Source: a virus (taxonomy: Duplodnaviria; Caudoviricetes). Taken from it: a stretch of DNA of 64,000 bases. Positions 1 to 43,241 of the stretch are shown here, piece after piece. How positions within the stretch are numbered: position 1 is the stretch's first letter; each line of letters begins with the position of its first letter. The notes under the pieces were generated by a model. That model ran no database searches, had not been told where the DNA came from, and was given only the letters and a program-made list of their open reading frames with translations. The stretch lies in IMG/VR virus record IMGVR_UViG_2556921664_000001, positions 8,766 to 72,765 of that record. One strand, written 5' to 3'. The position numbers were made by a program, and so were the translations under genes.

Positions 1-193
1 TATAGGCCCTGTTTGTGAGAATCCTGCCAATACTGCAATGCCATGAGCTAATGCCAACAGCTTCTCCGACACAGTGCAATCCATATCCTTGAAGATAAAG
101 CTCATACATTCTTATGACCTTGGGGCCATCAACCGGATCTATTACCAGTTCCCCATTTTTGATGCAGTAACCAAATGGTATGTGTGAAATCAT
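1..193 (-). CDS. Recombinase-domain accessory protein, 5' part only (runs off the window)
   Basis: Not in the ORF track. ATG at 193 overlaps the TGA of the upstream recombinase (ATGA). Translates MISHIPFGYCIKNGELVIDP...RILTNRAY, with the P(F/Y)GY recombinase-domain start. Confidence 0.75.
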   Translation of the reverse strand, partial: MISHIPFGYCIKNGELVIDPVDGPKVIRMYELYLQGYGLHCVGEAVGISSWHCSIGRILTNRAY

Positions 194-1707
194 GCTCTCA
201 CCAGCCTTTCCCTTAATCTTAGTCCGCATTTCAGCTCAAATATGATTTCCTTTTTGGATAGCACAACTACCCTGTCTACTATTGCTGTAAAAATGTTATC
301 TGAAAACTCTTTCTGTACACCTTTCTTATCACATATGCCGATAAGTTCCCTAAGTGCTGTTTTACGGTCCACTTTACTTCTAATGTTTTCACCCACGCGA
401 ATCTTATCCCTGGCTTTACTTATTTTTATCAGCTCTGGTAATATTACCGAACTGCTGAGATTATGTTTTGCCTGCATCTCAAGAAGTAACGCCTCTTGGG
501 AATTCAGTCTATCCAGTTCAGATTCATTGTTCTCGCAGTGCGGAATCTCAGTGTTACTCAAGTCACTAAGCATTGTTTTTAAAACCCTGTTCTTGATACA
601 TATCAGCTTATTTACCATGGTACAGAATGCGTCCTTCAAGGCTGCCTCTTTTATTGCCTTCATAGAGCACTTTGATTTATCCCTTATGTGCTCCGGGCAG
701 GCCAGCAACGGATACTTAATGTCTCCAGTATGCTGGATTTTATGTCTGAGTACACTATTACATTCTCCGCAACATACTTTGCCGGAAAAAGCATATCTTT
801 TCTTATACTTGGTAGGGGCTTCTTTTGCCTCTTCCCGCAGTTCGGCGAGTTTCTGCAGTCTATCAAATACTTCCTGGGAAATAATTGCATCGTGATGCTT
901 CTCACAGTAATATGCATCCACATTATTTTTGTTCTTGTGGCGTTTCCCGTCACTGCCAATATAGGTGGACTGGAAGATTATATTTCCAGTATAAAAAATG
1001 TTGTTCTGTATCCTTTTTACTGTGGATGCGTCCCACTTTTTTCCTCTTGGGGATGGTATTGAAAGCTCATTTAACTTTTTTGCAATGGCATAACCTCCCA
1101 GTCCATCAAGTCCACATGTAAAGATTTTCTTCACTATTTCCGCCTTTTCATTATCCAATTTAATGACACCTTCTTCATATATGTAGCCGTAAGGCGGTGA
1201 AACCATCTTGTAAGTTCCATCCTGGAATCGTTTCTGAATTCCCCACTTTATATTCTCTGATAACGACTTTGATTCATTTTCAGCCAATGCACTTACAACT
1301 GACATATAGAGCTCTGCATCCATATCCTTTGTATTGATATTATCCTGCTCAAATTTTACATATATGCCTTTTACAGCAAGTGTCCTGACTGTTTCAAGAC
1401 AATCCAATGTATTTCTGGCAAATCTGCTGATTGACTTTGTGAGGATAAAATCTATCTTTCCTGCTATGGCATCACTAACCAACTGCTTAAAACCATCACG
1501 TCTGTTTATGGAGCGTCCGCTGATACCATCATCAGAATACACTCCTACAAAGGACCATTCCGGGTGTGCCCTAATGTACTCCTCATAGTGCTTCTTTTGG
1601 TTATCCAGGCTGGCCAACTGATCAGCGTCTGAGGTAGAAACTCTACAGTATGCAGCAACCTTCAGTTTATTCTCAGGTCTTTTATCAATAATTTTTATTG
1701 TAGGCAT
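190..1707 (-). CDS. Large serine recombinase (integrase)
   Basis: YCRVST catalytic Ser, DDGISG, KSISRFARN, PPYGY recombinase domain, CCGEC...C zinc ribbon, coiled coil. Start at 1707 chosen from the GGAGG RBS. Confidence 0.95.
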   Translation of the reverse strand: MPTIKIIDKRPENKLKVAAYCRVSTSDADQLASLDNQKKHYEEYIRAHPEWSFVGVYSDDGISGRSINRRDGFKQLVSDAIAGKIDFILTKSISRFARNTLDCLETVRTLAVKGIYVKFEQDNINTKDMDAELYMSVVSALAENESKSLSENIKWGIQKRFQDGTYKMVSPPYGYIYEEGVIKLDNEKAEIVKKIFTCGLDGLGGYAIAKKLNELSIPSPRGKKWDASTVKRIQNNIFYTGNIIFQSTYIGSDGKRHKNKNNVDAYYCEKHHDAIISQEVFDRLQKLAELREEAKEAPTKYKKRYAFSGKVCCGECNSVLRHKIQHTGDIKYPLLACPEHIRDKSKCSMKAIKEAALKDAFCTMVNKLICIKNRVLKTMLSDLSNTEIPHCENNESELDRLNSQEALLLEMQAKHNLSSSVILPELIKISKARDKIRVGENIRSKVDRKTALRELIGICDKKGVQKEFSDNIFTAIVDRVVVLSKKEIIFELKCGLRLRERLVRA

Positions 1708-1738
1708 TGGAACCACCTCCCTTCATCAGCATGAGATA

Positions 1739-3953: not shown

Positions 3954-4445
3954 TCAAGAAGGAATTACTGCAACTGTCCCATCTTCACTGACTGCGCGAC
4001 AACAATCCGAATATACTTCAATAAATGCATATCCCCCATGAAGAGCTATTCCTCTGGCCTTCTCCAATCCATCGGGAAGTGGCTGTCCCGCTTTATAGTG
4101 CTCAATAATTCCGCCTATTATGTCCAAAGTATGTACTTCATAAGGCTTTCCTAAATAGCATTTGGAAACATACCCAAGCAAAATCCCCGACATTTCCAGT
4201 TCCGGGAATTCCAGACTGATTTTATTGATAATCTCATCAACTTTACTCTGGTTCATTACATGCCCACCCGCATCAAGCTCATGGATGGCCTCAATATATT
4301 GCTTGCTACGTTTTTTGCGGAGCAAGCGATCCAAGCGAATCTTTTCCGCCTCACTTTGAATACGTTGTGTATTAGGTTGCAGCATTTGATTCAAATTAGT
4401 CTCTGACTTGTTCTTTTCTTGGACACGCAACATAGGCCTCGGCAT
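3954..4445 (-). CDS. Conserved hypothetical protein, last gene of the AAA operon (CYLGxPYEVHTLD motif)
   Basis: ORF with GGAGG RBS and a globular alpha/beta C-terminal region. Confidence 0.75.
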   Translation of the reverse strand: MPRPMLRVQEKNKSETNLNQMLQPNTQRIQSEAEKIRLDRLLRKKRSKQYIEAIHELDAGGHVMNQSKVDEIINKISLEFPELEMSGILLGYVSKCYLGKPYEVHTLDIIGGIIEHYKAGQPLPDGLEKARGIALHGGYAFIEVYSDCCRAVSEDGTVAVIPS

Positions 4446-4497
4446 ATCAATCCCTCCGATGTTTTTTTATTCGGCCGTTTACAAAAGTCTTTTTCAA

Positions 4498-6072
4498 TCA
4501 TAAAAGCACCTTGCGAGTCTTTGGTCCACTTTGCTGGGCAATTTTCTCCCCGCCAATAGGTTTGCCGGAAGCTGGCACAGCACGCTCTTTTCCCCACTCG
4601 CGAATTGCCTCAATTTTTTCTGGGCTGGTCTGGGACAATGGAATTACATTATTAAATGCTGTAATTATATTCTCCGAGGTCAGTGTAAAATTCTCATTTG
4701 CAATTGTCCTATATGCCAAATCGCGTACAGTGGACTCTAAATCAGCACCAGTGAAGCCATCACTGATTTGAACAATTTTATCTGCAAACTCCCCGCTAAA
4801 GTCCATGTCCAAGTATTTTTTCATATAGAGAGCCAATATTTCCCTGCGCTCATCAACTGTAGGAAGATCAACAAAGAACAGCTCGTCAAAACGACCACGC
4901 CGCAAAAGCTCCGATGGAAGCATAGAAACGTCATTCGCCGTTGCAACCACAAACACTTGCTTTTTACATTCCTGAAGCCAGAACAGGAACTGCCCTACCA
5001 TTCTTGTGGATACGCCGCCGTCTCCGGCACCGCCAGTGGCCCCAGACAGACCTTTTTCAATTTCATCAATCCACAAAATACAAGGAGATACATTCTCCGC
5101 AGTAGTCAGAGCATCCTTAAGCTGCTGTTCTGACTGGCCCACATAGCTTCCCTGTACTGTAGCAAAATCCAATCGATAAAGAGGAAGTCTCCAATTAGCA
5201 GATATGGATTTTGCAGATAACGATTTTCCGCACCCTGGAACCCCCACCAGCAATATGCCTCTTGGTGGTAACAGACCCTTGGCACGCAACATATCTCTTT
5301 TTTCAGGCTTCATCAATTCCTTCTTCTCATCCAACCAGCTCTGGAGCCCTTGCAATCCGCCCACATCTTTCAAACTGTCATCCACATCGATTTTTTCCAG
5401 CCCGGATATATCGGAAAATAAGCGATTTTTTGCATACCTAATTTCATCCATATCAGATTTTAAAATACGTTTGTTTGCAATCAGTGCCGCAATTACGTTT
5501 TCTGCCTCGATTTTGCTTACTCCTGCCAACGCAGAGGCTGCTTCCCGAATATCATTATTGTCCCATTCTATTTGGATTTCACTGCGATAATCGTCAATAT
5601 ACTCCTTAATAATGGAATACATTTCATCCTCTGTAGGCAAACCGATTTTTACAATCATCCCTTGCCGCTGCAAATGATTCCATACAGCATTGTGGGTCAT
5701 AACAATCACGACCCCACCTGTTTCATTAGCCAGATTTACCAATGCCAGTAATTGCTTTGATTCGCTGTTTTCAGTACTTATATCCGGAACCTCAGTCAAC
5801 ACAATGGTCAAATATTGTCTGCGCTGCATCTGCTCCGTTATATAATCTATGGCACCATAGAAGGATTTGTCTTCATTGACGACCTTGTCAGTAGTGATAT
5901 CATAAATTCCCCTAGAGGATGTGTGTACTAAAAATGACAGCTGCAGTTCCTCGGCCGTATTCTTGAGGATATCCAGTGTTCGCCCATGTTCTATGGTATG
6001 AATTGCAATAAAAGGTATTCTGGCGATAGAATATCTTTTTAACAGTTCCTTGCTTTTATTGATATCACTCAC
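4498..6072 (-). CDS. AAA+ ATPase, Ycf46-like (degenerate N-terminal AAA-like domain plus active C-terminal AAA)
   Basis: Walker A GVPGCGKS, Walker B ILWIDE, ATAN sensor, LLRRGRFD arginine finger. Confidence 0.9.
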
Positions 6073-6076
6073 AAAA

Positions 6077-6583
6077 CTACACCCCTTTCAAGGAATTTAC
6101 CTTATTGTTACGCACTATGCTCAGCAACTTTCCGCTACGATCCCGTTTGGCGGAATCCTCCAATGAATGTTGCATCTTATCCGCCTGTTCTTGAACCAGC
6201 TCCTGCAGTTTTTCTCGATGCTCTGCTGGCAATACTGGCAAATCGAGAGCCGCAGAAAGAAAACGCATTTCCTTTCTTACAGCCAAAATGGCGCGTACAA
6301 TGGATGACTCACTCCCCATTGTTCTCCCCATGTCCTTTTGAAATTTGTCAGTAGCCTCATTCATCCGATGATTCACCGCATCAATCAATCTCTTGGAAAA
6401 TCGTTCTGCAACACCCGATTGCCATTCCAATTCTCCATGTTGCATTGCCTCCAGTACATCTGTATCGTTTTCCCCGCCCTTAAAGAGCTCAATCACTGTT
6501 ACCCATTCAGAATATTGGCGTGGCGCTGGTATCATGTCTATCGCTTCCTCCTTACCGGCATTTGCGGCGGAACCAAATCCCAT
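6077..6583 (-). CDS. Hypothetical alpha-helical protein (168 aa)
   Basis: Tightly coupled in the operon (4-nt gap to the AAA gene); helical composition. Confidence 0.75.
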   Translation of the reverse strand: MGFGSAANAGKEEAIDMIPAPRQYSEWVTVIELFKGGENDTDVLEAMQHGELEWQSGVAERFSKRLIDAVNHRMNEATDKFQKDMGRTMGSESSIVRAILAVRKEMRFLSAALDLPVLPAEHREKLQELVQEQADKMQHSLEDSAKRDRSGKLLSIVRNNKVNSLKGV

Positions 6584-6750
6584 GAAGGCAAGCCCTGGGC
6601 AAATGCGCCCTTTGCCTCTTCGTTGATTTCTGAACTGTCTGCCTCGTCAGATGCAAATGCCTGTGGATCAACAGTGGCATACCCTGGCTTCTTTTTTTCA
6701 GAGGTGTCGGCTACCCCGTTGATGAAATCAGCCCTCATCTTGGCATCCAT
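6538..6750 (-). CDS. Small acidic hypothetical protein (70 aa)
   Basis: Strong RBS (AAGGAGGAGAGG); C-terminal LPSWDLVPP motif; overlaps the next gene. Confidence 0.65.
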   Translation of the reverse strand: MDAKMRADFINGVADTSEKKKPGYATVDPQAFASDEADSSEINEEAKGAFAQGLPSWDLVPPQMPVRRKR

Positions 6751-6765
6751 AATTTCCTCTCCTCC

Positions 6766-8490
6766 TTATACCCGAATAGTGCGCTTTGCCCCAGCAAGTC
6801 TCTTAACATATTGCTCCGGCTTAATCTGTTCCAGAAAATCCAATACCTTTTGGCTCTCCGAATCCCTATTGGAAAAATCCGCACGGAAGTCGACGACCTC
6901 CGCCAAAACAGCTCTAATCATTTGGCTGCCAGTTTTCACTTTTTTGGCAAATTGTTCCTCAATGTCCGCACGCACTTTTTCCAGTTCTTTCTTGCGTGAA
7001 AAATGCTTTAAGATACATCCGAATCCAGCCAATACTACCACAACTCCCAATTTCCCGGTTTGGGCCATTATCAGGCCGACAACAATGAGCGCACCACCGC
7101 CGTAAAGACAAAATTTGTCAAATAGTGTGAGCACATGAGGCGCAAGTGCCTGTTCTTTTTCGGCATCTACTTCCCCTTGGTATTTCGCTAATAATTCAGC
7201 CTCATTAGTCCCGTCGACGGTTGTCCCTTGGAAGTTATCAATTGTAAAAGGAATCTCATGAGGTATTTTCATCCGGTTTTTCGCAACAATATCTGTATAG
7301 GCATTGTAAATCCAATCCCTCGACAAAGCTATGGCAAGTTTTTGGGTTGATGGGCTGGCATGTGAACTTGCGGCATTCATAGCAGCATCAGTCAAAAGCT
7401 GGGTAAAATCCTTGCGGGATTCAAACGCTGATTTTTCCAAAGTCATATTTCTATTTGCACGGTCCTCATCACCATTGAATTTTACAATCAACATATCCAG
7501 CTGTTCCTGCCTGCGGAGCGGTAATTCTTCTTCATCATAATCTGTCACAAGACTTTTCAATATACTATCCAGTTGTTGCTCAAGTTTCATGCTTGTAGAG
7601 GGCTGGGCAAAAATCTGAGAAAAATATTTCAGAATTTTTTCGTGCAAACTAGCTCCTTCCAAAATATCTGCCATGACAGGCCACAATGCCGTATAGCGTC
7701 TAACATATTGGTAGGAAGACGTGTCGATTGGCGTACGTTTTGCAATGATTGCATTGGACCACTGTCTTGTCTGCTGTTCAACAAAACCTGTTCTTTCAGA
7801 TAAATATGCCAACCATTCGTTCATTTGTCTGGCAACAAGTCCCTCCGTGTCCGCCCCGAACAAGCCGTTGGCATAAGCATCAAGTATTATAACAGCTGTG
7901 CGCTCAAGAGCTGCTGCATCCTGATTTGCCAAATAACGTTGCAACCATTGAATACTTGCTCTTTTACGTGCAGCCCTACGGCATACCAACAGGAAAAATA
8001 AGGACGTCTTTGTGTCGCTTCTCCTGATTCCTTCCTTCAGTGCTCTTTCCGCCAGTTCCGGCTGATCGCTGATCCAGGCCGCCAAAGCAACAAGACAAGG
8101 AGCAAGCCAATATCCTGGTGTAGAAAGCATCAATTCCTCAGTAGCGGTGCTTATTGTTTCCTTTCTTACAATTCCCAAATCGTCCGCCTGTAAAATACCA
8201 GTGGCCGTACGACGAACAAGCTCGTAATGCCCAAATTGACGTTCCAGTGTCTGCCGAACTTCTATAAGGTCAGTCTTTGCCCGTTGCAGATTATTAGCCA
8301 AATGCTGATACTGAATAAACTGTTGCAGGTCGTTTTTTAAAGTATCAAGGGTATCATCTACATCGCGCATGCGTTCATCCAAGCGACCAATGTCATCATT
8401 AATACGTTCCAAATCCCTGCTGATGTCCAGCAAATTATCTTCAATTGTGCTAAGATCAGCTTCCTGAATTATCCGTTCACTCACGACCAT
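6766..8490 (-). CDS. Coiled-coil/helical-repeat membrane protein with a C-terminal transmembrane hairpin (574 aa)
   Basis: N-terminal heptads (IEDNLLDISRDLERINDDIGRLDERM); two hydrophobic segments near residues 460-500. Confidence 0.8.
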   Translation of the reverse strand: MVVSERIIQEADLSTIEDNLLDISRDLERINDDIGRLDERMRDVDDTLDTLKNDLQQFIQYQHLANNLQRAKTDLIEVRQTLERQFGHYELVRRTATGILQADDLGIVRKETISTATEELMLSTPGYWLAPCLVALAAWISDQPELAERALKEGIRRSDTKTSLFFLLVCRRAARKRASIQWLQRYLANQDAAALERTAVIILDAYANGLFGADTEGLVARQMNEWLAYLSERTGFVEQQTRQWSNAIIAKRTPIDTSSYQYVRRYTALWPVMADILEGASLHEKILKYFSQIFAQPSTSMKLEQQLDSILKSLVTDYDEEELPLRRQEQLDMLIVKFNGDEDRANRNMTLEKSAFESRKDFTQLLTDAAMNAASSHASPSTQKLAIALSRDWIYNAYTDIVAKNRMKIPHEIPFTIDNFQGTTVDGTNEAELLAKYQGEVDAEKEQALAPHVLTLFDKFCLYGGGALIVVGLIMAQTGKLGVVVVLAGFGCILKHFSRKKELEKVRADIEEQFAKKVKTGSQMIRAVLAEVVDFRADFSNRDSESQKVLDFLEQIKPEQYVKRLAGAKRTIRV

Positions 8491-8530: not shown

Positions 8531-11353
8531 TCATATATTTACAGCTTCACGCAGCTTTTCCCACACTTTAACCATTGCATACGTATCAAGACCACAGTAT
8601 TTAAGCAAATACCCACGATATTTTTCCAGTTCCTCTGGAGACATGTCAGCCATAGCTAGAAATGCATTTGATGCTTCAGTGCCATTATGAATACCTTCAA
8701 GATTGTGATAATCCAGCGCAGGATCATCCGGAAATAGTGCTGGTAACACAAGCTTGATAGAAGAACGTCCCTGCATTTCCTTGACATAATAATGCTCATT
8801 ATGAAACGGCATCTCAAGGTCTTGGATATGGTCATGGATATTCATCAAGTGTTCAGCCAAGTCAGGGAAAAGTTCCGCTAATTCCTTTACACGCCCTTGT
8901 TCGAATGATTTATGATATGCCAACGTACAACCATTCAACGTAATATCCATGCAAAGCTGCTCTGCTATCCCTCTACGTGGGTCTTCTCCAGGATATGCCA
9001 GATATTCCTTGTGTTTTAGTTCCCCTCCCTCCTGTTCAATATAGTGAAGGGAATACTGAAATACTATCTGTGCATAAGGCTTTGCATTATCATATTGTGG
9101 TACGGCCATTTGGCAAGATTCGAAATCAAGGAAATACAATGGATAGGATAACCCCACCAAAAATTTTTGAATCTCCTCTTTTTCAATATGCGGTGCCTTT
9201 TCAAAAAGCTCGTACTCTATCTGTATTTTCTTCACTCCTGCCTTATATAGCTGGTTGAAATCGATTATTCCCTGATGATAATATTGGATTTTTTTCTTCC
9301 ATTGTGGTGAGTTACCCGCGACATCAAATACATTAGGTTGTGGCAGGTGTCCGGTACAGTATTTCCAACAGTCGCACATTACACCATCTCTTTTGCAATG
9401 TTCATCAATGATATCTGGAGATTCGTCCTTTTGCTTCATGTACTCAGTAAATTTACCTAAATTAGCCTCCACCTCATCATGCTTGGCCTTTGCTTGTTCT
9501 GTAAAATCCACCACTGTGAAAAGATCCTGCAAATCAAGTTCTCCATGCCGCACATATTTATTGTTCAAATGCATTAAATAGACTCGATTCACCTCAAAAC
9601 CACACTTTTCCACCACAAAGCACTGGAAAGCTACATCATCATAATAATGATCCTTGATTTTCGCGGTACTCTTTACCTCATAAATATCCACTTTTTTCCC
9701 GCCAAGATGATGTAATATATCAACGCTACAGAAAAGATTGTCTACCGCAAAGGACGCCTCTGCAATGTACTCTTGCCCATTCTCCAAAAGTTCATTTGTC
9801 CGTGTAACCATGCTACCGAGATTGTTCTTATTAAAGGGCACAACAACACAACCATCAAATCGCTTTTGAGCCAGTATCCCCACCTCATTGCCAACAGCAA
9901 TACGTTCTTCAGAGGCCGGCGACTCATCGATAATCTCAGGCTTATTAGTTTTTAACCACAATGCCTTAGGGCACTGTGTCGCCATTACATACTTCGACTT
10001 GGAACAAATCAATGTAGATACCTCTGTAATCATATCGCCATATCCCAAATCTTTCATTTTTTGAATGAACTTTAAAAAATTTTTCTTAGTATTAGCTGCA
10101 CCCCATTCTCTGCAAATAACTACTGTAGTATTATCTCTCAGTACTATAGGATAATCTGTTAAAAATCTTGATTTATCCTTGTCTGGTACTTCAGAAAGAT
10201 TCTTTATCACGCCGTATGACCCCTGCAAATCCTTAGGAAATACTCTGCACAGTCCTTCATAATTAATATCAGGATGTTTTTCAACATAAAGGCCCACAAC
10301 AGATAATACAATTCTTCCTAATGCGGTTTGTTCACCATTAAATAGGTATCTTGAAGTTTTAGATTTGCCAGTTGGTTTATTATCATTATTTTTTTCTTTT
10401 TTAAATGATGTGCCATATTTTAGCGGCTTTGGTAGTTCATCTATGAATGAGCTGCTTACGTTGTTTACCATCGCCAGCTTATTAAATTGTTGCATATTTT
10501 CTTGTCCATACCTTGTATAAAACTGCTGACGCACATAATTTATTACATCAGGATTTTCACCAATCAGATAATTTGAGTTTCCACTTTTCGGGACAAGGAA
10601 ATAATTTAACGGGTCACAAAAACGTAGAAAATGTGCCTTGACAATATTCTTTTCTTCATCAGTCCAAATATCTGGGAGACGTCGTACATGATCTTCATTT
10701 TCTATCCAATCCGCCACCACCCCTCTAGGAAATAATTTATCACTTAAAGCTTCTGGCAAATAGAAATCATCACTTCTATGGTTATTTTCCTTTAAACTAG
10801 CAATATGTGCCAAATACCAACCTTTCCCATTTAAAATCCCCGTTTCTCTAGGATGTCCAAGAAATTGATTTTTGTTGGCTATCAACGCTTCTTCACTTTT
10901 TTTGCCATTATCATAGTGCATTGGATACATATTATCATTTAATAATTTAGCAAATTCCTCTGCTGTGGGAACAATGCCCTTGTGAGCCATATTATAAATC
11001 TCATGTACCTCAAAATTGCTGGCAAACACGTAGGAGCAACCGTCAGCCATAACAGTTTTTGCAGCGCGCCTATTTTTATACGGTCTTAGCCCGCGCTGTT
11101 CCCAATTCTTATTATTTCCGCCTTCATATTTTCTTATCAAAAATACCGCATCCGACCGGTCAATATACTCAACCAACATTTTGTGCCAAGCAATAGCGTA
11201 TTCGCTGTCTATTAGTGTAGGTTTAATACATTTCTCATACAATTCAGTAACGGTTTTTACTTCTTCATATTCTGGTAATGAAATTTCAAAATCAATTATC
11301 TTCTTTTCATTATGCCTTGAAAAATAATCTTGAATTCCTGTAAAAATTGCCAT
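8531..11353 (-). CDS. Multi-domain fusion: possible His-Me/HNH-like N-terminal domain, restriction-associated middle domain, and DUF2779-type PD-(D/E)xK plus RNase H-like nuclease
   Basis: The C-terminal ~490 aa start SKSKYVMATQCPKALWL and contain CSVDILH...IYEVKST (Cas4-like), a Cys cluster and YFLDFE...DTYAM. The N-terminus has WYLAHI...DPLNYFLVPK. Confidence 0.75.
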   Translation of the reverse strand: MAIFTGIQDYFSRHNEKKIIDFEISLPEYEEVKTVTELYEKCIKPTLIDSEYAIAWHKMLVEYIDRSDAVFLIRKYEGGNNKNWEQRGLRPYKNRRAAKTVMADGCSYVFASNFEVHEIYNMAHKGIVPTAEEFAKLLNDNMYPMHYDNGKKSEEALIANKNQFLGHPRETGILNGKGWYLAHIASLKENNHRSDDFYLPEALSDKLFPRGVVADWIENEDHVRRLPDIWTDEEKNIVKAHFLRFCDPLNYFLVPKSGNSNYLIGENPDVINYVRQQFYTRYGQENMQQFNKLAMVNNVSSSFIDELPKPLKYGTSFKKEKNNDNKPTGKSKTSRYLFNGEQTALGRIVLSVVGLYVEKHPDINYEGLCRVFPKDLQGSYGVIKNLSEVPDKDKSRFLTDYPIVLRDNTTVVICREWGAANTKKNFLKFIQKMKDLGYGDMITEVSTLICSKSKYVMATQCPKALWLKTNKPEIIDESPASEERIAVGNEVGILAQKRFDGCVVVPFNKNNLGSMVTRTNELLENGQEYIAEASFAVDNLFCSVDILHHLGGKKVDIYEVKSTAKIKDHYYDDVAFQCFVVEKCGFEVNRVYLMHLNNKYVRHGELDLQDLFTVVDFTEQAKAKHDEVEANLGKFTEYMKQKDESPDIIDEHCKRDGVMCDCWKYCTGHLPQPNVFDVAGNSPQWKKKIQYYHQGIIDFNQLYKAGVKKIQIEYELFEKAPHIEKEEIQKFLVGLSYPLYFLDFESCQMAVPQYDNAKPYAQIVFQYSLHYIEQEGGELKHKEYLAYPGEDPRRGIAEQLCMDITLNGCTLAYHKSFEQGRVKELAELFPDLAEHLMNIHDHIQDLEMPFHNEHYYVKEMQGRSSIKLVLPALFPDDPALDYHNLEGIHNGTEASNAFLAMADMSPEELEKYRGYLLKYCGLDTYAMVKVWEKLREAVNI

Positions 11354-12258: not shown

Positions 12259-14310
12259 TTATTCTGCATATACATCAATATAAGCCTGCTGATACTCTTT
12301 TGGATAGTGAACTTTATAGTACACCATACGATATAAAAGAGCTGTATAGTCAATGGCCTGGGCTCTGGAAACCAAATATCTGATCTTTTGGCAGGAGTCA
12401 ATATACCAATCTGGTATATTATGTTCTTTTAGAATTGCCACCATATCAGGTTTTATGCCACGTCCCTTGCGTACAGCTTCCATTATTTTAACTGCCGTCA
12501 TTGGTTCAATTCCCATCCCAATAAGGTATGTCATAATATCATCACGTGTAGCTATAACCTCTTTGAAGGTACACACCCCATCCTTAAGCAGAAGTTCGGT
12601 ATTATTATTCCATGCCCCGGAATCAAATGATGCCAATGCAATGATTTTTACAAGCTCATTCATACTGCTTGGCTTTACCATGGACATAATCTGGTAAAAC
12701 AGCTTGCTTAGTTGAATTCCCATTTGCCCAGATGTTCCCTTATTCTCTTTCATGACATCACCAAATGATTCTGGCTTCAAGGAACATAAACATGATAGCG
12801 TTTCAGCATCGCTAAGGGATATATCTCTAATCCGGTAATTAGTACTGTCCTCCATTTTTTTCAGAAAATCCATCTCCCTAAGTGGCAGCATATCAAGCTT
12901 TATCAGATCCCCTAATAGTGCGCGATAATCAAAATAAGTTGTTAACCACTGATCATCAGTATCTTCGGATATATACTGAGTGGGCGTAAAACAATGAACA
13001 TCCATATCCTGGGGAATCAGCATCAATGCGGCTGGATGAACGCCTGTATCTGACGGGATATTTATTATCCCCGGTTTAAAGACGTTATTTTCCCCCAATA
13101 TTTCCTTTATATATGAACGAAGCATCGGGATCTGCTGAGCAGAATAACAAATGTCAATATCCGGTATTTTTCTGCCATCAAAGCCAAGAAAAACTGCATA
13201 AGACATGTCCCAGCCGTCTTTTATCAGCGGTTCACCGCAAATAGGACAATTTTGATCAGGTAAATCGGCTCCAAATACGTATTCATTATCAGTAGCAAAT
13301 TCACTGTGTTTACATTTTGGGCAGCGCCAATGGGGCGGAAGAGGATTAATATCCGTAATCCCCAACAGATTTGCAACCAATGAGGAACCTACGGAACCGC
13401 GGGAGGTAGTACTATAACCATTCCCATGGGTTTTATCTGCAAGCTTCCGGGAAATTAAATACAGCGACGAATAACCATTCCTGGTGATAATTGACAGTTC
13501 CTTATCAAGTCTTTCTTTCACCACCGCAGGGAGATTTTGACCATATATCCTGTGCGCTGCTTCGTATGAAAGATTTTTTACAGTTTCTTCCGCCTCAGGC
13601 AAAACAGGCAGATGGATTCCTTCCGGTATTGGTCTTAGTCGGTCAATCATATCTGAAATAAGCTGCGGGTTATTGATCACAACATCATAAGCTGTTTTTT
13701 CTCCAAGATAACTGAAGGATTTCAACATTTCATCTGTTGTTTGTAAAACTTCTATACCTTGGTCAGCAGCCACTACGGACTTATTAATTTTTGCCGCTAA
13801 CTCCACAAGTTTTATATTGGTGTCACACAAATCATCATCTGGCTGAATTTCCAAGTAATCATAAAAGGCGGCAATTTCCAAAAGCCTTTCTTCACTTTTA
13901 TGTGAGGCTATGGCCTGTATAAGCTGACCATCAAGCCCTGCAGCCCCTACGAGTAATCCTTCACGGTGTTGTTCCAAAATTTCTTTTGATATACTATGAG
14001 CCTCGTTTCCTGGCTTGGTATGTAATAATGTAACCAAGTTATACAGATTTTGAAGACCAATCTTATTTTTGGCCAAAACAATCACGTGATATACAGATAA
14101 TAAATCTGCATCTTCCGTCGACAATAAAATTTCCATGCCGTAGATTATTTTGATGTCAAGATTATCCCCCTCAACAATTTGCATAGCCTCCGGAAACGCC
14201 TTTACTGAACAGATATCAGTGATTGCCACAGCTTTCCGACCTCTCCGGGCGGCTGTACTAATATATTCTTTCACGGACATTTCATTAGCTATTTTACTTG
14301 ATAATTTCAT
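12259..14310 (-). CDS. Minimal PolC-like family-C DNA polymerase (degenerate PHP, Zn finger, palm/fingers; no OB, exonuclease or C-terminal duplex/clamp-binding region)
   Basis: RGSVGSS, CPKC...CPIC, KIPDIDI, KLDML, TRDDIM, VRKG, PDWYIDSC and YKVHYP all match PolC motifs, but the protein is only 683 aa. Confidence 0.88.
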   Translation of the reverse strand: MKLSSKIANEMSVKEYISTAARRGRKAVAITDICSVKAFPEAMQIVEGDNLDIKIIYGMEILLSTEDADLLSVYHVIVLAKNKIGLQNLYNLVTLLHTKPGNEAHSISKEILEQHREGLLVGAAGLDGQLIQAIASHKSEERLLEIAAFYDYLEIQPDDDLCDTNIKLVELAAKINKSVVAADQGIEVLQTTDEMLKSFSYLGEKTAYDVVINNPQLISDMIDRLRPIPEGIHLPVLPEAEETVKNLSYEAAHRIYGQNLPAVVKERLDKELSIITRNGYSSLYLISRKLADKTHGNGYSTTSRGSVGSSLVANLLGITDINPLPPHWRCPKCKHSEFATDNEYVFGADLPDQNCPICGEPLIKDGWDMSYAVFLGFDGRKIPDIDICYSAQQIPMLRSYIKEILGENNVFKPGIINIPSDTGVHPAALMLIPQDMDVHCFTPTQYISEDTDDQWLTTYFDYRALLGDLIKLDMLPLREMDFLKKMEDSTNYRIRDISLSDAETLSCLCSLKPESFGDVMKENKGTSGQMGIQLSKLFYQIMSMVKPSSMNELVKIIALASFDSGAWNNNTELLLKDGVCTFKEVIATRDDIMTYLIGMGIEPMTAVKIMEAVRKGRGIKPDMVAILKEHNIPDWYIDSCQKIRYLVSRAQAIDYTALLYRMVYYKVHYPKEYQQAYIDVYAE

Positions 14311-14412: not shown

Positions 14413-15588
14413 TTGACAGAAGGTAACAATCTGACAGCTACAGAAAAATTAAGAAAAGCCCGAATCAGAATAATGAACAAACAGCCTTTTTTCGCTTCCC
14501 TTATTATGCTCCTTACACCAGTTGAAGATGATTCTATAGGAACAGCAGCGACTGATTCAAAAAACCTATTCTATGCTCCTTCTTATATAGAAAAATTGTC
14601 TATTGAGGAAGTTATTTTTGTGTATCTGCATGAGATTCTCCACTGTGCCTTAGGACATATCTGGAGACAAAAAGATAAGGATCATAGACTTTGGAATATT
14701 GCCACTGATTATGCAATTAATGGTATGTTACATAACGATATAAAACTAAATCATTTTCTCAAAATGCCACCAAGTCTGCTATATAAAGAAACATATTATG
14801 GTATGTCAGCGGAAGAAATATATGATTCCCTTAAGTCAGATATTGCTAGAGCTTTCGTTAGCGTTAGCGTTGGCAATGGTGATGATGGTGATGATGAGCC
14901 TCAAAACCATGTTTTATGGAAAAATGCTGATAAAAACGAACGGATAAACTGGCAATACAATACCAAGATTGCAATTAAAAATGCAGAAAGATATGGTAAA
15001 GCACCTTCATATCTTACAGAAATAATTAAGCGGTTAAAACCACCACAAAAGGATTGGCGAACTCTATTGAATGAATTTGTCCAAGAGGAAATAAATGATT
15101 TTTCACTTATGCCGCCGGACAACCGTTTTGATGGGGATTTTTTCATTTTTTCCTTTTCCGATACAACAGAAGTGGTAAAAGACTTGCTGTTCTTTGTTGA
15201 TACATCTGGTTCCATGCGAATAAATGAATTAGAGGCTTGTTATTCGGAAATAAACGGTGCCCTCCAGCAATTCAATAGGCAACTACAGGGTAAACTTGTT
15301 TTTTTTGATGCAGTTGTCCATGAACCATTATACGATTTTGACGACATCAAAGATATCAGATCTGTATGTCCTATAGGCAGGGGCGGTACCTGTTTTTATG
15401 CTATATTTGATTTTTTAAAAGAATATAAGAATGCTCATAATCCCATTGCGGGTGTCATTATTTTAACTGATGGACAATGTGACTACGATGACATCGATGC
15501 ACCAGATTTTCCTGTTCTTTGGGTATTTACTACCCATGACAACAATCCACCCTTTGGCTTATCTACTACCATCGAAGTCAGCCCATAA
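14413..15588 (+). CDS. DUF2201-type metallopeptidase-like plus vWA domain protein
   Basis: HEILH (HExxH), NIATDYAIN, MIDAS elements VDTSGSM, GGT and LTDG; TTG start with GGAGG RBS. Confidence 0.88.
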   Translation: MTEGNNLTATEKLRKARIRIMNKQPFFASLIMLLTPVEDDSIGTAATDSKNLFYAPSYIEKLSIEEVIFVYLHEILHCALGHIWRQKDKDHRLWNIATDYAINGMLHNDIKLNHFLKMPPSLLYKETYYGMSAEEIYDSLKSDIARAFVSVSVGNGDDGDDEPQNHVLWKNADKNERINWQYNTKIAIKNAERYGKAPSYLTEIIKRLKPPQKDWRTLLNEFVQEEINDFSLMPPDNRFDGDFFIFSFSDTTEVVKDLLFFVDTSGSMRINELEACYSEINGALQQFNRQLQGKLVFFDAVVHEPLYDFDDIKDIRSVCPIGRGGTCFYAIFDFLKEYKNAHNPIAGVIILTDGQCDYDDIDAPDFPVLWVFTTHDNNPPFGLSTTIEVSP

Positions 15589-15639
15589 CAGTTATCCTAA
15601 TATGACGCATATTAATTTTGTACGAGGGAGGAACATATA

Positions 15640-16755
15640 ATGTCTTATATGGATATGATTAGTAATGAAAATTATTCACAAATTTCCTGTAATAAATTTA
15701 TCAATATCATGTCTGCCCTGTATTCCGAAGGAGATTTTTCCAAACAACCAACCAAAATGTTATGGGGCCAGCCAGGTGTTGGTAAATCCCAGGCAGTACA
15801 ACAATTTGCCAACATACTGTCAGAAAAAACCGGTAAAAAAACTAATGTAAAAACTGTTTCCTTACTGCTGATGAATCCTATTGACCTTAGAGGTATTCCA
15901 GCCAAATCGAAAAATGAACGGAACGAAGATGTGGCCAAATGGTTATCCCCGGATATATTCAAATTGGATCCCAGTGATGATGTTATCAATATCTTATTTT
16001 TGGACGAAATATCAGCGGCTCCACCATCTGTTCAGGCTGCGGCATATCAAATATGCCTTGACAAACGCATCGGCGAGCATGTTCTCCCGACCAATACTAT
16101 AGTAATATGTGCCGGCAACAGGGTTTCAGACAAAGCTGTGGCATTTAAAATGCCTAAGCCCCTGTCCAATCGTCTTACTCATTTTGAAATAATTGCTGAT
16201 TTAGATTCATGGCGTTCATGGGCTTACCAACACAATATCAATGACTCAATCATTGCGTTTATTACATGGCGACCAGATTACCTTAATAAATTTGACCCCT
16301 CAAACGATGATGTGGCTTTTCCTACTCCCCGTTCCTGGGAATTAGTCAACACTTATATGCAATTTGGCTTTGAGGAAATGTTTGAATGTATAGCTGGAAC
16401 CGTCGGACTGGCAACAGCCATTGAATTAAAATCATTTATTGATCTTTCCGTAACACTACCTACTTTTAGTGATATTATTGCCAACAAAGCCGAATTACCA
16501 GCTAATAATGATCCTGCTGTAATGTATGCTATTTCTTCAATGATTACTTCAAATGTAGTGCAAAATGGCTCTACGCTTAAACTGAAAGAAAAGAATAATC
16601 TGTTTAAATATATTGGCTCCTTTAAGCATGATGAATACATTCTCCTTACATTGCAAGATATTATAAAAAATTGCCCTGAATTTAATAAATATCTTTTAAA
16701 AAACAAAGATACCATCAAATTTATTAAGCAATTTCGCAATGATTTAACTAATTAA
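15640..16755 (+). CDS. MoxR-like AAA+ ATPase partnering the vWA protein
   Basis: Walker A GQPGVGKS, Walker B ILFLDE, AGNR, PLSNRLTH, PTPRSWE. Confidence 0.88.
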   Translation: MSYMDMISNENYSQISCNKFINIMSALYSEGDFSKQPTKMLWGQPGVGKSQAVQQFANILSEKTGKKTNVKTVSLLLMNPIDLRGIPAKSKNERNEDVAKWLSPDIFKLDPSDDVINILFLDEISAAPPSVQAAAYQICLDKRIGEHVLPTNTIVICAGNRVSDKAVAFKMPKPLSNRLTHFEIIADLDSWRSWAYQHNINDSIIAFITWRPDYLNKFDPSNDDVAFPTPRSWELVNTYMQFGFEEMFECIAGTVGLATAIELKSFIDLSVTLPTFSDIIANKAELPANNDPAVMYAISSMITSNVVQNGSTLKLKEKNNLFKYIGSFKHDEYILLTLQDIIKNCPEFNKYLLKNKDTIKFIKQFRNDLTN

Positions 16756-25159: not shown

Positions 25160-25696
25160 TCACATATAGTCCGTTACACCGCGGGCAATGGCCCTCGCAA
25201 ACTCATCCTGGTTAAACCGTAAAAGCTTCTCATCATCCTCATTGGAAATAAATGCCAACTCCACAAGGACTGCTGGCATATCCGTATTGGTAAGGACATA
25301 GAGTCCGTTCTTACCCGGGGTTGCCATCTTAACTCCCCTGTCCACGGTTCCAAGGTGATCTACAATCTGGGACTGGATGCATTCAGCCAGATGCTTTCCA
25401 TCACTGGAACCAGCACAGTACCATGTTTCAGTTCCCTCCGCATATGGGGACTCCACACTGTTACAGTGAATGGAAATAAAAAGATCTGCATCAAGGTTAT
25501 TAGCCTCACTGCAGACCTCATATAATTCATCACTCTGTAACACAGCAGTTTCAATCCCCACGGCATTAAGGTAATGCTCTACCAGCTTACCAACGCTTAG
25601 TACCACATCACATTCCCTAAGACCTGTGACATCACTTACCGCCCCCGGATCTGGTACTCCATTTGGCGCATGGCCTGGATTAATAAATACCTTCAT
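25160..25696 (-). CDS. Endolysin, N-acetylmuramoyl-L-alanine amidase (Amidase_3 type)
   Basis: INPGH, E, ISIHCN and LVELAFISN zinc-amidase motifs; no cell-wall-binding domain. Confidence 0.92.
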   Translation of the reverse strand: MKVFINPGHAPNGVPDPGAVSDVTGLRECDVVLSVGKLVEHYLNAVGIETAVLQSDELYEVCSEANNLDADLFISIHCNSVESPYAEGTETWYCAGSSDGKHLAECIQSQIVDHLGTVDRGVKMATPGKNGLYVLTNTDMPAVLVELAFISNEDDEKLLRFNQDEFARAIARGVTDYM

Positions 25697-25697
25697 A

Positions 25698-25871
25698 TTA
25701 CTTCTCTCCTCTCTTTTCAACATGGTGCTTTCCAGCACCGCCAATATAACCTAAAAGACCGCTGGCAATACTCATGCTAAGCTCATTAAGATTTGAGTAA
25801 ATGGCTATGATGAGAGCTGCGGATAAGGCTACAACTACAACCAAGTCTGTAACATTAATTCTTTCTATCAC
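25698..25871 (-). CDS. Holin-like two-TM protein
   Basis: Two hydrophobic segments and a basic C-terminus; GTG start at 25871 with GGAGGT RBS; directly upstream of the endolysin. Confidence 0.65.
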   Translation of the reverse strand: MIERINVTDLVVVVALSAALIIAIYSNLNELSMSIASGLLGYIGGAGKHHVEKRGEK

Positions 25872-37745: not shown

Positions 37746-38945
37746 TTATGGCTTGGAAGAAGTACCCTTCATAGAAAGAATCTGAACTGCTTCTGGGAGG
37801 ATAAGGCGCCCATCGACACGTTCTTTCATCACATATCCCACCATACCGTTACCAGCGAAGAGTTCCTTCAGTTCCTGCATGGAACGTGTACCGCGGTCAC
37901 CGATGTTATAGTAGGAGTAATCACCAAATGCCATAGCTGGCTTTCCTGTCGCAGATTCTGGTGCATATTCAGAGGTGTGTACCTCATACCCTAAAATACG
38001 ATCTGGTTCACCTGCAGTAAGTGCCGGCTGCCACATATACACGCCATTGTTATCCTTCAGCTTACGAATAGAAGCCAAAGTCTTATCGTTAGTGATAAAT
38101 GCCGCATTCTTGCGGTACGGACGCTTAAGGTTATAAATCAGGGTGATGATATCATCGGCACTAATGCTATTGCTGGAAGTCGTGGTATTAAACTGTCCAC
38201 CCTTTTCAGCATCAAAAATGCCTGTAGGCTTACCTTTGCCATCACCATTAAGGAAGGCATCTTCTTCTGCATTGGCCAGTGCTTTACCAAACTGGTCGAT
38301 GATGTAACTTTCGAGGTTAAAGGCATTATCGTAGAGAAGCTCCTCAGTAATCTTGATAGCCACATGGAGCTTATATGCATCAAGCATAATCTGGTCAAAG
38401 GTTGCCTCACCAAAACCGAGGGTCTCTCCTTCTTCAATCCAGGCAGCTGCTGGCTTTGTGGCAGCAATATTGATTTTGTGCTGCCCGGAGGTGGTAATCT
38501 TAGTAGAAAGATTACGCATAATGTTTTCTGCATTCAACACATCAACGAGACGCTTATCATACTCAACTGGCACGAGATAACCACCCTGCTGGTCATCACC
38601 TTCCTTAAGAACATTACTGATATTGCGGAAGCGGCTGCGGGTTGCTGCCAACATTTCCTTACGGTATTCATCCGTAGCACGGAAATTGGCTGGTGCCTTA
38701 CCAGAAGATGGTTCATTGGTAATAGGCGTACTAGTTGGCTTATCAAGCTCCCTATCAATAACCGCCTGACGCTGCAGGCGATCGATGGACTTTTTCATAT
38801 CCACCACATCAGCCTCCATCTTCTCATAGGTGGCAGCATCTTCAGCAGAGAGCTTACCATCTTCATCAGTATGAGTATCAAGGAAATTCTTGGCCTCTGC
38901 CCAAAGCTTAGCACGTTTTTCAATCAGTTCATTAATCTTATCCAT
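37746..38945 (-). CDS. Major capsid protein, HK97 fold
   Basis: N-terminal coiled-coil delta domain, GGYLVP, WIEEG, ITEELLYD, FGDYS, RVDG. Confidence 0.95.
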   Translation of the reverse strand: MDKINELIEKRAKLWAEAKNFLDTHTDEDGKLSAEDAATYEKMEADVVDMKKSIDRLQRQAVIDRELDKPTSTPITNEPSSGKAPANFRATDEYRKEMLAATRSRFRNISNVLKEGDDQQGGYLVPVEYDKRLVDVLNAENIMRNLSTKITTSGQHKINIAATKPAAAWIEEGETLGFGEATFDQIMLDAYKLHVAIKITEELLYDNAFNLESYIIDQFGKALANAEEDAFLNGDGKGKPTGIFDAEKGGQFNTTTSSNSISADDIITLIYNLKRPYRKNAAFITNDKTLASIRKLKDNNGVYMWQPALTAGEPDRILGYEVHTSEYAPESATGKPAMAFGDYSYYNIGDRGTRSMQELKELFAGNGMVGYVMKERVDGRLILPEAVQILSMKGTSSKP

Positions 38946-41340: not shown

Positions 41341-41652
41341 ATGAGTAAAGCATATGATATGATAAGTGCATCTTTAAATGAAATTATTGATGATATTGAA
41401 GTTACCAATGGTGCCAATCTAAAACAAACAGTATTGACAATTGATGTCGATACCGTACGTAACTTCACTCCAAGTGAAATACGAAATATCCGTATGGAAA
41501 ATAATCTTACTCAAAACCTGCTTGCCAAGTTTTTATGTGTAAGCAAAAAAACTATAGAAGCATGGGAATCTGGCAGAAATACTCCAAACGGACCATCCAA
41601 GCGTCTGCTTGAGTTATTGGCTAAAAAAGCTGTAGCACCTGTTGTGTCTTAA
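41341..41652 (+). CDS. HigA-like XRE HTH antitoxin
   Basis: LTQNLLAKFLCVSKKTIEAWESGRNTPNG. Confidence 0.85.
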   Translation: MSKAYDMISASLNEIIDDIEVTNGANLKQTVLTIDVDTVRNFTPSEIRNIRMENNLTQNLLAKFLCVSKKTIEAWESGRNTPNGPSKRLLELLAKKAVAPVVS

Positions 41653-43241
41653 ATCAACAATATTCCACGCTCATCATATACACTTTCACCATTATCCAAT
41701 CCACAGCGGATTGCTCGGTCAAGAGCCATTATCGTGGCCACAACACCGTCAATCTTCTCTGTGGATTTTTCTTTGTCCGGTTTTATGTTCCCGGCTGGAT
41801 CTGTCTTTATGAAGATGTTGTCCATCATCCATCTAAGGACCGGATGGCCGCCATGGGCCAATTTCTGCTCCAGGGTCAGCTTCATCAATTCCTTGGTTGG
41901 TGGGTTCATATCCTTAAAGCCCTGCCCAAACGGAACCACAGTAAAACCCATACCCTCAAGATTCTGCACCATCTGCACAGCTCCCCAGCGGTCATAGGCA
42001 ATTTCCCGGATATTGAACCTTTCATTCAGCTTCTCGATAAACTGCTCAATATATCCGTAATGGACCACATTTCCTTCAGTTGTAAGAAGCGTCCCCTGCT
42101 TCTCCCACACATCATAAGGCACATGATCGCGCCTTACCCTAAGGTCAACATTGTCCTCCGGAATCCAAAAATAAGGGAGAATGTAGTATTTATCCTCCTC
42201 ATCAAGTGGCGGGAACACCAGCACAAAGGCTGTAATATCTGTTGTACTGGAAAGGTCAAGACCTCCATAGCAGACACGTCCTTCCAGTTCATCCTCATTG
42301 ACTGTAAAAGCACATTTATCCCATTTATCCATCGGCATCCATCTGACAGCCTGCTTTACCCATTGGTTTAGGCGAAGCTGCCTGAAGGAGTTCTCCTCTG
42401 CCGGGTTCTGCTTGGCTGACTCGCAGGCCGCCACCACCTTATCTATTGTGATTGTTTCACCAAGTGAAGGATTAGCCTTTTTCCACACTTCCGGGCTCGT
42501 CCAATCCTCGGACTCGGCAGCACCATAAATGACAGGATAAAATGTGGGGTCAAACTTCCGCCCCTCAATGATATCCAATGCCTTTTGGTGAAGCTCGTAA
42601 CAAATGGAGTTGGTGTCGTTCCCAGCTGTGGTAATCAAAAAGTACAGAGGCTGTTCTCTTGCATCTCCGGAGCCTTTCGTAAGAACATCGTAGAGTTTTC
42701 TGTTTGGCTGGGTGTGTACCTCATCCAGCACCAGCCCTGAAACATTTAGGCCATGCTTGGTCCCTACCTCTGCAGAAAGCACTTGATAAAATCCATTATT
42801 CAGATGGGACACAATACGTTTATTGGCTCCAAGGCTCTTTGACCTCTTCGCCAATGCCGGGGTCAGTTTCACCATCTGATTGGCAACATCAAACACAATG
42901 GCCGCCTGTTGCCTATCCGCCGCCGCCCCATAAACCTCCGGGGCTGCCTCACCATCGGCAAACAAAAGATAAAGTGCAACGGCAGCGGCTAATTCGCTTT
43001 TACCATTCTTCTTTGGTATTTCAATATAGGCTGTGGTAAACTGCCTGTGGCCATCTTCCTTAACAGTTCCAAAAATATCCCTTATAATCTGTTCCTGCCA
43101 AGGGAGCAGCTTAAAAGGCTTACCGGCCCACCTGCCCTTTGTGTGGCAAAGGCACTCAATAAAGCCTACCGCAAAGTCAGCCTGCCCTTTATCATAATGG
43201 GATGTATCCAGTTTGAATTTTGTAGGCTTATAACCTTCCAT
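41649..43241 (-). CDS. terL: Terminase large subunit
   Basis: LLPWQ, PKKNGKS Walker A, LVLDE Walker B, GLDLS nuclease motif, KIDG. Confidence 0.95.
   Translation of the reverse strand: MEGYKPTKFKLDTSHYDKGQADFAVGFIECLCHTKGRWAGKPFKLLPWQEQIIRDIFGTVKEDGHRQFTTAYIEIPKKNGKSELAAAVALYLLFADGEAAPEVYGAAADRQQAAIVFDVANQMVKLTPALAKRSKSLGANKRIVSHLNNGFYQVLSAEVGTKHGLNVSGLVLDEVHTQPNRKLYDVLTKGSGDAREQPLYFLITTAGNDTNSICYELHQKALDIIEGRKFDPTFYPVIYGAAESEDWTSPEVWKKANPSLGETITIDKVVAACESAKQNPAEENSFRQLRLNQWVKQAVRWMPMDKWDKCAFTVNEDELEGRVCYGGLDLSSTTDITAFVLVFPPLDEEDKYYILPYFWIPEDNVDLRVRRDHVPYDVWEKQGTLLTTEGNVVHYGYIEQFIEKLNERFNIREIAYDRWGAVQMVQNLEGMGFTVVPFGQGFKDMNPPTKELMKLTLEQKLAHGGHPVLRWMMDNIFIKTDPAGNIKPDKEKSTEKIDGVVATIMALDRAIRCGLDNGESVYDERGILLI

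Follow-up and report, generated by a model that had tools for sequence, protein, structure and literature searches.

A cassette of five genes, here called A to E, is located at positions 3954-8490 of a 64,000-nt stretch of viral DNA (the window), which corresponds to positions 8,766-72,765 of the record IMGVR_UViG_2556921664_000001. All of its genes lie on the minus strand, and the translations showed five intact open reading frames (ORFs) (Table 1). An annotation made earlier from the sequence alone (the original prediction) had described them as tightly coupled, and the gaps confirm this: 15 nt between A and B, 2 nt between the stop codon of B and the conserved start of C, 4 nt between C and D, and 52 nt between D and E. 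Gene E is preceded by a GGAGG site. The GTG start of gene D agrees with the N-terminus of the D homologues. The cassette is widespread but undescribed, and no published description of it was found in the literature search.

The window cassette is prophage cargo of a lysogenic-conversion region. Genes for a serine recombinase, an amidase, a major capsid protein and TerL were found in the window, as the prophage origin already proposed would have it, and the cassette sits between the lysis genes and the integrase. It is at this position that temperate phages carry cargo.

Table 1. Coordinates of the cassette genes, of prophage genes in the window and of features in related loci (L numbers denote loci).
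Feature	Position	Strand	Length	Description
Gene A	6766-8490	minus	574 aa	predicted membrane-anchored helical scaffold
Gene B	6538-6750	minus	70 aa	flexible adaptor-like protein
Gene C	6077-6535 (ORF open to 6583)	minus	~152 aa from Met17	small helical protein
Gene D	4498-6072	minus	524 aa, GTG start	putative classical-clade AAA+ unfoldase
Gene E	3954-4445	minus	163 aa	MPRPML start, candidate metal-site beta domain
Serine recombinase	190-1716			prophage marker
Amidase	25160-25744			prophage marker
Major capsid gene	37746-38945			prophage marker
TerL	41649-43241			prophage marker
DUF2779 gene	8531-11353	minus	940 aa	neighbour of the cassette
Further cargo	12259-14310	minus		prophage cargo
Further cargo	14413-16755	plus		prophage cargo
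FDDC-repeat ORFs	L020:14180-17425; L023:14165-18385; L021:14614-16953; L030:14134-16230; L054:14477-15664; eight more loci			related loci, directly after D
Zinc-ribbon/TM gene of the upstream pair	L014:6376-7299			example of a related locus
HerA-like gene of the upstream pair	L014:7330-10008			example of a related locus
Zinc-ribbon ORF with L7/L12-like part	L020:18876-19181; L023:20151-20456		101 aa	slot between D and E
Multi-TM family gene	L085:15533-16903; L091:14990-16354; L093:12638-14011; L077:5014-6060			directly after E, divergent branch
Split gene A	G740:C11:70766-72443			Streptococcus
Cassette of Javan368	L098 (MK448457.1):9674-14257			Streptococcus satellite phage record

Proteins encoded by the cassette

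Among the five proteins, D alone belongs to a described family. It was matched by Pfam AAA (3.8e-28) plus AAA_lid_3 and, over the full length, by phrog_8638 (5e-104). The closest matches of its AAA module in the Protein Data Bank (PDB) were the D2 domains of archaeal VAT and p97/Cdc48 (2e-56). The AAA+ ATPase expected in the operon is clearly present, with the Walker A motif GVPGCGKS, the pore loop YVG, the Walker B motif ILWIDE, the RRGRFD motif and a conserved C-terminal tail. The Walker A motif, the YVG pore loop, the Walker B motif, sensor 1 and RRGRFD are invariant in 34 D homologues, the mean column identity is 83%, and D is 82% identical to the copy of Blautia. These features support the view that D is an intact threading, classical AAA+ unfoldase resembling Cdc48 and VAT. 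No Pfam or PDB match was obtained with the N-terminal ~230 aa. When this N-domain was aligned with the AAA module by hhalign, 120 columns came into register, with the sensor-1 strand and the Arg-finger/lid region lined up; the match is weak (probability 12%, E 0.0026). The alignment agrees with, but does not prove, a layout in which a degenerate AAA would be followed by an active one.

None of the other four proteins could be placed in a Pfam, NCBIfam, PHROG or PADLOC family, and none matched a solved structure convincingly. The PADLOC models gave only weak matches for A (E 4e-4) and C (E 4e-3) and none for B and E. In the PDB sequence searches, C gave no match, and the profiles of A and E gave coiled-coil noise at most.

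A was modelled by AlphaFold from a 60-sequence alignment, and the model is confident and all-helical, with a predicted local distance difference test score (pLDDT) of 89. It is composed of a long N-terminal helix (14-105), a TPR-like helical domain (~86-216) and further helical bundles. A beta hairpin (413-424) is followed by a hydrophobic helical hairpin (~455-500) at the end of long helices. The C-terminal transmembrane (TM) hairpin of the original prediction was confirmed, as 60 of the 60 aligned family members keep a strong hydrophobic segment at this position in spite of sequence divergence. The N- and C-termini are both predicted to face the cytoplasm. The model and the conserved position of the segment support A being anchored in the membrane through the hairpin. 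The family of A comprises 783 representative clusters at 50% identity, nearly all of ~570 aa, and more than 2600 clusters at 90% identity, all of them unnamed. Look-alike clusters in the Protein Atlas are also unnamed and come from Fusobacteriota, Bacillota and Actinomycetota, and the Blautia form of A accounts for ~11,000 blocks in the assembly index.

In the Foldseek search, the top matches for A were pore and pre-pore forms of AhlB, SmhB and MakA (E 5e-3 to 8e-2, probability 0.95-1.0), but the TM-scores were only 0.16-0.30. In the fold search with VIA, TPR proteins gave Z values of 9-10 and AhlB gave 7.7, with a root-mean-square deviation of 7.5 over 214 residues; all of these Z values are within the range that the tool calls common for helical proteins. 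A LeoBC-like dynamin identity of A was also tried and rejected. The hhalign comparison with five LeoBC-like proteins gave a 33% probability over 30 columns outside the paddle, the PADLOC score was just 17.7 bits, and A has no P-loop.

B carries a conserved helix motif, MDAKxRADFIN or MDAKxKANFIN, at its N-terminus and an invariant peptide, FAxGLPxW[D/S]xxPPQxxVRR, at its C-terminus. Over 43 homologues, the residues A51, L54, P55, W57, P61, P62 and R68 are invariant. The homologues range from 58 to 394 aa, since the linker between the two motifs can be of any length and a zinc ribbon may or may not be present there. The zinc ribbon is found in most homologues and is missing from the B of the window and from that of Streptococcus, where a ribbon-less B of 58-70 aa is the rule; such forms occur elsewhere too. 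B had been described as a 70-aa acidic peptide ending in LPSWDLVPP. The length is correct, but this motif lies near the C-terminus and not at it, as the C-terminal region reads ...GLPSWDLVPPQMPVRRKR, and the protein is only mildly acidic overall, with an acidic centre and a basic tail. Adaptors of Cdc48-type ATPases and TPR-binding clients combine a free middle with a short terminal peptide. Since the middle of B is free to vary or vanish while its terminal peptide is invariant, B looks like an adaptor with a docking peptide, in line with the adaptor role suggested for it at first.

C is found in 83 of 92 loci and always between B and D. It was expected to be a helical protein of 168 aa. The helical character stands, but the homologues begin at Met17, and the alignment with the Blautia homologue (62% identity) also starts there. 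Therefore, C is probably ~152 aa long and there is no real overlap with B.

E begins with the conserved residues MPRPML, which are followed by a disordered linker rich in Q and T, a helical part and a small beta domain. In the alignment of 42 homologues, C96, H105, H116 and E143 are invariant and D147, C148 and C149 are near-invariant. The CYLGxPYEVHTLD motif noticed earlier spans the C96...H105 pair. The conserved Cys/His/Glu/Asp cluster is possibly a metal site. The model of E reached a pLDDT of 74.5 and matched no solved structure in the fold search (best Z 4.4). The 1084 homologues of E are all unnamed, and nothing useful was obtained from the Protein Atlas. E keeps its place at the end of the operon also in loci where 1-7 kb of cargo separate it from D. 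It can also lie upstream of A, for example in locus L008 and in a Komagataeibacter plasmid.

Conservation and spread of the cassette

The order A-B-C-D-(cargo)-E recurs in ~80 fetched loci across phyla, which is far more than chance, and the proposed check of the gene neighbourhood came out in favour of one operon. Of 92 loci with A, tblastn detected D in 84 and C in 83, and it detected B and E in 73 each; most of the misses are at contig ends. The order persists even where A is only 27-33% identical. A and the N-domain of D occur in the identical 3 of 401 genomes of the phylum. This co-occurrence in the same order across phyla supports the five genes forming one functional unit.

A scan of one genome per species identified at least 560 carriers of A. 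The known carriers include Clostridia, Streptococcus mitis/oralis/sanguinis, Phascolarctobacterium (Negativicutes), Merdibacter, Fusobacterium and proteobacterial plasmids, among them small plasmids. In Streptococcus, A was found in 9 of 251 species representatives; one of the nine is interrupted and one is a partial match only. In one Streptococcus genome, A is split in two and its second part contains two in-frame TGA codons, which marks a decaying cassette. The cassette of Blautia sits among ilv/leu housekeeping genes, and near-identical copies of A and E (94-98%) were found on other contigs. Identities of 55-59% between distant hosts and the patchy distribution indicate that the cassette has been transferred horizontally. 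A was found in 1 of 50,697 phage records and is not a typical phage gene. In the record of the Streptococcus satellite phage Javan368, the cassette forms the last 4.6 kb and the record ends exactly at E. Carriage by a satellite was considered and not accepted. The boundary of the record is doubtful, as the cassette is at its very end and elsewhere in Streptococcus lies beside rpsD without satellite genes, and the record may include flanking chromosome.

An anti-phage role had been put forward in the original prediction. The cassette would then serve abortive infection or superinfection exclusion, with A as a latent ClyA-like permeabilising effector and with D, together with B, C and E, sensing the infection and activating or releasing A. 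The cargo position in the prophage, with the lysis genes on one side and the integrase on the other, the patchy and horizontally transferred distribution reaching small plasmids, and the appearance of AhlB, SmhB and MakA as the top Foldseek matches for A (E 5e-3) are all compatible with such a role. D also matched the PADLOC IetA models (4e-32), but the match covers only the generic AAA core (residues 255-495), the IetS protease is missing, and PADLOC recognised no complete system. As in the model of A, a long helical stalk of the ClyA-family toxins AhlB, SmhB and MakA is tipped by a hydrophobic hairpin of helices. In contrast to these toxins, A lacks a secretion signal and AhlA/AhlC-type partners, has twice their length and would act from the inside on the cell's own membrane. 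The low TM-scores and the Z value of AhlB within helical noise also speak against this reading, and the alpha-pore-toxin logic of the first annotation is left as a weak fold lead. Defence and integrase families are almost absent from the flanks in 50 loci. The housekeeping context in Blautia and the near absence of A from phage records do not suit an anti-phage system, and the toxin-immunity pairs embedded in related loci, described below, fit bacterial competition better than abortive infection. We regard an anti-phage function as quite unlikely.

Toxin, zinc-ribbon and HerA-like genes in related loci

The genes around the cassette were surveyed in the 80 best-matching species loci with a simple ORF caller and motif, so that the fractions of toxin and zinc-ribbon genes given here are approximate. 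In ~20 loci, 1-7 kb are inserted between D and E. Thirteen of these inserts begin with a large co-oriented ORF whose N-terminus is very acidic and contains 2-4 (F/Y)(D/E)DC repeats, with no obvious signal peptide when the N-terminus was read by eye. When 93 loci were searched, every one of these FDDC-repeat ORFs was located directly after D. Their N-terminal and central parts are shared and their C-termini are swapped. WHH/colicin-DNase and papain-fold glutamine deamidase domains were recognised among the C-termini, and the remaining ones were not recognised by Pfam. The small ORF after the toxin co-varies with the toxin C-terminus in four independent pairs. At the level of the sequence, the cargo between D and E in these 13 related loci has the anatomy of polymorphic toxin-immunity modules. 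The FDDC N-terminal signature matched no described trafficking domain.

In all 13 toxin loci and six more (19 in total), A is immediately preceded by a further pair of genes. The first encodes a protein of ~307 aa with an N-terminal zinc ribbon and C-terminal TM helices, and the second encodes a HerA/DUF87-type ATPase of ~892 aa. The C-terminus of this ATPase is rich in Cys. ORFs with an N-terminal zinc ribbon and a TM segment are also frequent around the cassette. They were found at position -2 in 16 of 49 cases, at -1 in 7 of 50, inside the operon in 7 of 61 and at +1 in 13 of 50, against a baseline of 28 of 2453 (1.1%) in the genome of the window, and in both flanks the enrichment has faded to background at position 3. 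When 148 flanking genes from the 50 loci were tallied by Pfam family, Zn_Ribbon_1 (19), DZR (8) and Peptidase_M48 (5) ranked highest. A multi-TM family adjoins the cassette in 7 loci, often at +1, and is probably the source of the Peptidase_M48 matches. In a divergent branch, members of this family follow directly after E in the same orientation. Two of the loci with FDDC-repeat ORFs carry in the slot between D and E a small ORF with an N-terminal zinc ribbon and, judged by eye, an L7/L12-like C-terminal part.

The cassette of the window is a stripped core. Nothing is inserted between D and E, no FDDC-repeat ORF was found in the genome, B is without a zinc ribbon, and no zinc-ribbon ORF or toxin gene lies near the cassette. 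The copy could be taken for a decaying or idle passenger without present function in the lysogen, considering that its B lacks the central zinc-ribbon region of most homologues, that no client-like gene is present in cis and no FDDC toxin anywhere in the genome, and that A is broken in one Streptococcus genome. However, the five frames are intact, and the motifs and the coupling of the genes are conserved. The ribbon-less B is a natural variant and the rule in Streptococcus, and the near-identical copies of A and E on other contigs do not fit with decay. An idle passenger is, in our view, very improbable.

Discussion

We propose that the products of the cassette form a protein-unfolding machine that is driven by an AAA+ ATPase, is docked to the membrane and belongs to an undescribed family spreading horizontally. 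This machine would extract proteins or pass them across the membrane. The probability of this reading is estimated at roughly 40%. A would be held in the cytoplasmic membrane by its hairpin and would expose its helical TPR-like platform to the cytoplasm. B, with its invariant C-terminal peptide, and C would couple this platform to D, acting as a hexameric motor. D would then thread clients in or at the membrane, either for extraction or for hand-over to export. E might bind metal and serve as a cofactor, or it might be a substrate that carries a tag at its N-terminus. In the elaborated relatives, the clients may be encoded in the operon itself as zinc-ribbon-tagged membrane proteins. Where the HerA-like ATPase and the zinc-ribbon/TM protein are added upstream, they may include the FDDC polymorphic toxins with their immunity genes. 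Which proteins bind each other, that the neighbours are clients, in which direction transport runs and how the lysogen benefits are what we infer from these arrangements. The strict position of the signal-less toxins, with their unstructured acidic N-termini, after D and the crowding of zinc-ribbon genes make both groups plausible clients; B itself usually has a ribbon. The links to zinc-ribbon, M48, HerA-like and toxin genes in the relatives, which are absent from the original prediction, point to protein handling or export at the membrane.

Several observations weigh against this proposal. The proposed clients are missing in cis in the window, where no nearby zinc-ribbon gene is present and no FDDC protein is encoded in the genome. 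Most loci, such as those of Blautia and Streptococcus, have no toxins. Therefore, toxin handling cannot be the core function. A recognised toxin domain was found in only two families among the 13 cargo ORFs, and the toxin census covers the 80 best-matching loci. Two helices of ~17 residues are also a modest basis for a channel. In a stronger form of the proposal, the cassette would be the conserved core of a new pathway by which monoderm bacteria export proteins or deliver toxins. B and C would dock D to hairpins of A that form a ring in the membrane, and D would unfold clients lacking a signal and pass them through the membrane. The FDDC toxins and the zinc-ribbon-tagged proteins would be the clients, the HerA-like ATPase would be an addition of toxin-exporting versions, and the prophage would spread the bare core. 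We consider this stronger form unlikely.

The same neighbours could be explained by membrane maintenance in the manner of the phage shock protein (PSP) and ESCRT-III systems. A, perhaps with C, would form an assembly on the membrane that seals, bends or buds it, and D would be a Vps4-like disassembly or recycling motor recruited through the B peptide. The zinc-ribbon membrane proteins and M48 peptidases would be envelope-stress partners, and the toxins of the relatives could exit in vesicles. ATPases with an 'inactive classical AAA + classical AAA' layout were described next to PspA or TM+Snf7 genes, and the zinc-ribbon proteins YdjG and ZnR-PspC were listed as PSP partners (Ravi et al. 2024, PMC11237479). 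The alignment of the D N-domain in register with the AAA module, the zinc-ribbon and M48 genes enriched beside the cassette and the long, helical, membrane-bound A of the model all suit this explanation. On the other hand, no PspA_IM30 (PF04012) or Snf7 (PF03357) match was obtained in A, B, C and E at E<=0.1, and no PF04012 match was found anywhere in the genome. The comparison of the A family profile with a PspA by hhalign gave a probability of 1%, and the structural match of A to the PspA structure 4whe (Z 7.9) is within helical noise. D has no MIT domain, as its N-terminal 230 aa align, weakly, with the AAA module and do not form a three-helix MIT domain, and A has a TM hairpin, unlike the ESCRT-III proteins. 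The ESCRT-III/Vps4-like membership loosely suggested by the original prediction thus found no backing in the PspA, Snf7 and MIT comparisons, and membrane maintenance of this kind appears rather unlikely.

A membrane-docked unfoldase can be compared with several known machines. D shares with Cdc48, p97 and VAT the Walker A and B motifs, an aromatic-hydrophobic-Gly pore loop and arginine fingers. As far as the sequences tell, D also appears to rely, as Cdc48 does, on small short-linear-motif adaptors and a membrane partner. Unlike Cdc48, D has only one active AAA module, preceded by a putative degenerate one, and no double-psi-barrel N-domain; A, B, C and E are unrelated to the known cofactors, and no link to a protease or a ubiquitin-like tag was seen in the cassette. 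The putative two-part layout of D, seen in the weak in-register alignment of its N-domain with the AAA module, would resemble that of the 'inactive + active AAA' or Ycf46-type ATPases. A membrane-associated helical partner and zinc-ribbon neighbours are common to both. The cassette differs from these systems in having neither PspA nor Snf7, with PspA (PF04012) missing from the genome as well, and in that the D N-domain occurs only together with A in the 401 genomes sampled. With ESCRT-III/Vps4 (CdvB/CdvC), it possibly shares the logic of an AAA+ motor, a membrane helical protein and a proline-containing recruiting peptide. The differences are the missing MIT domain, the lack of an ESCRT-III fold detectable by sequence, and the TM hairpin and TPR-like domain of A.

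The extended relatives also resemble the type VIIb/LXG systems of Bacillota. Both combine a HerA/FtsK-superfamily ATPase, membrane proteins and immunity genes with signal-less polymorphic toxins that have a conserved N-terminal region. However, no EssC, WXG100 or LXG was recognised by Pfam in the scanned proteins. The toxins of the relatives start with acidic FDDC repeats, and what is conserved as the core is a Cdc48-like AAA+ together with A, B, C and E. The window copy is without any toxin parts.

With the exception of D, the proteins come from large families without a name, a domain or a recognisable fold, yet the cassette keeps its gene order across phyla and moves on a prophage and on plasmids. 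If the cassette is a membrane-docked unfoldase handling or exporting proteins, it would be a new kind of machine in bacterial envelope biology and could explain how signal-less polymorphic toxins leave gut Clostridia. If it serves PspA-independent membrane maintenance instead, AAA+-driven remodelling would be widened beyond ESCRT-III. Both possibilities are directly testable, since carriers are in culture, among them Streptococcus oralis/mitis and isolates of Dorea, Faecalicatena and Lachnospiraceae.

Neighbouring genes of the prophage

The cassette was also thought to lie next to other conflict-type genes. This claim is weak, as the PADLOC scan around the cassette recognised nothing except one methylase/specificity fusion. 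Upstream of A lies a gene whose product contains a DUF2779 domain (7e-45) and matches Cas4-like proteins weakly. Its end is separated from A by 40 nt in which no terminator-like site was found, so that transcriptional read-through into A is possible. This gene was rejected as a sixth member of the cassette since no homologue adjoins the cassette in any other locus. Beyond it, further prophage cargo lies on both strands (Table 1). It includes a 683-aa PolC-like protein with PHP, DNA_pol3_alpha and finger domains only, as well as a DUF2201 metallopeptidase/VWA protein and a MoxR-like AAA, and none of these is recognised by PADLOC. No RNA run is among the sequencing runs listed for this DNA, which are animal-gut metagenomes.

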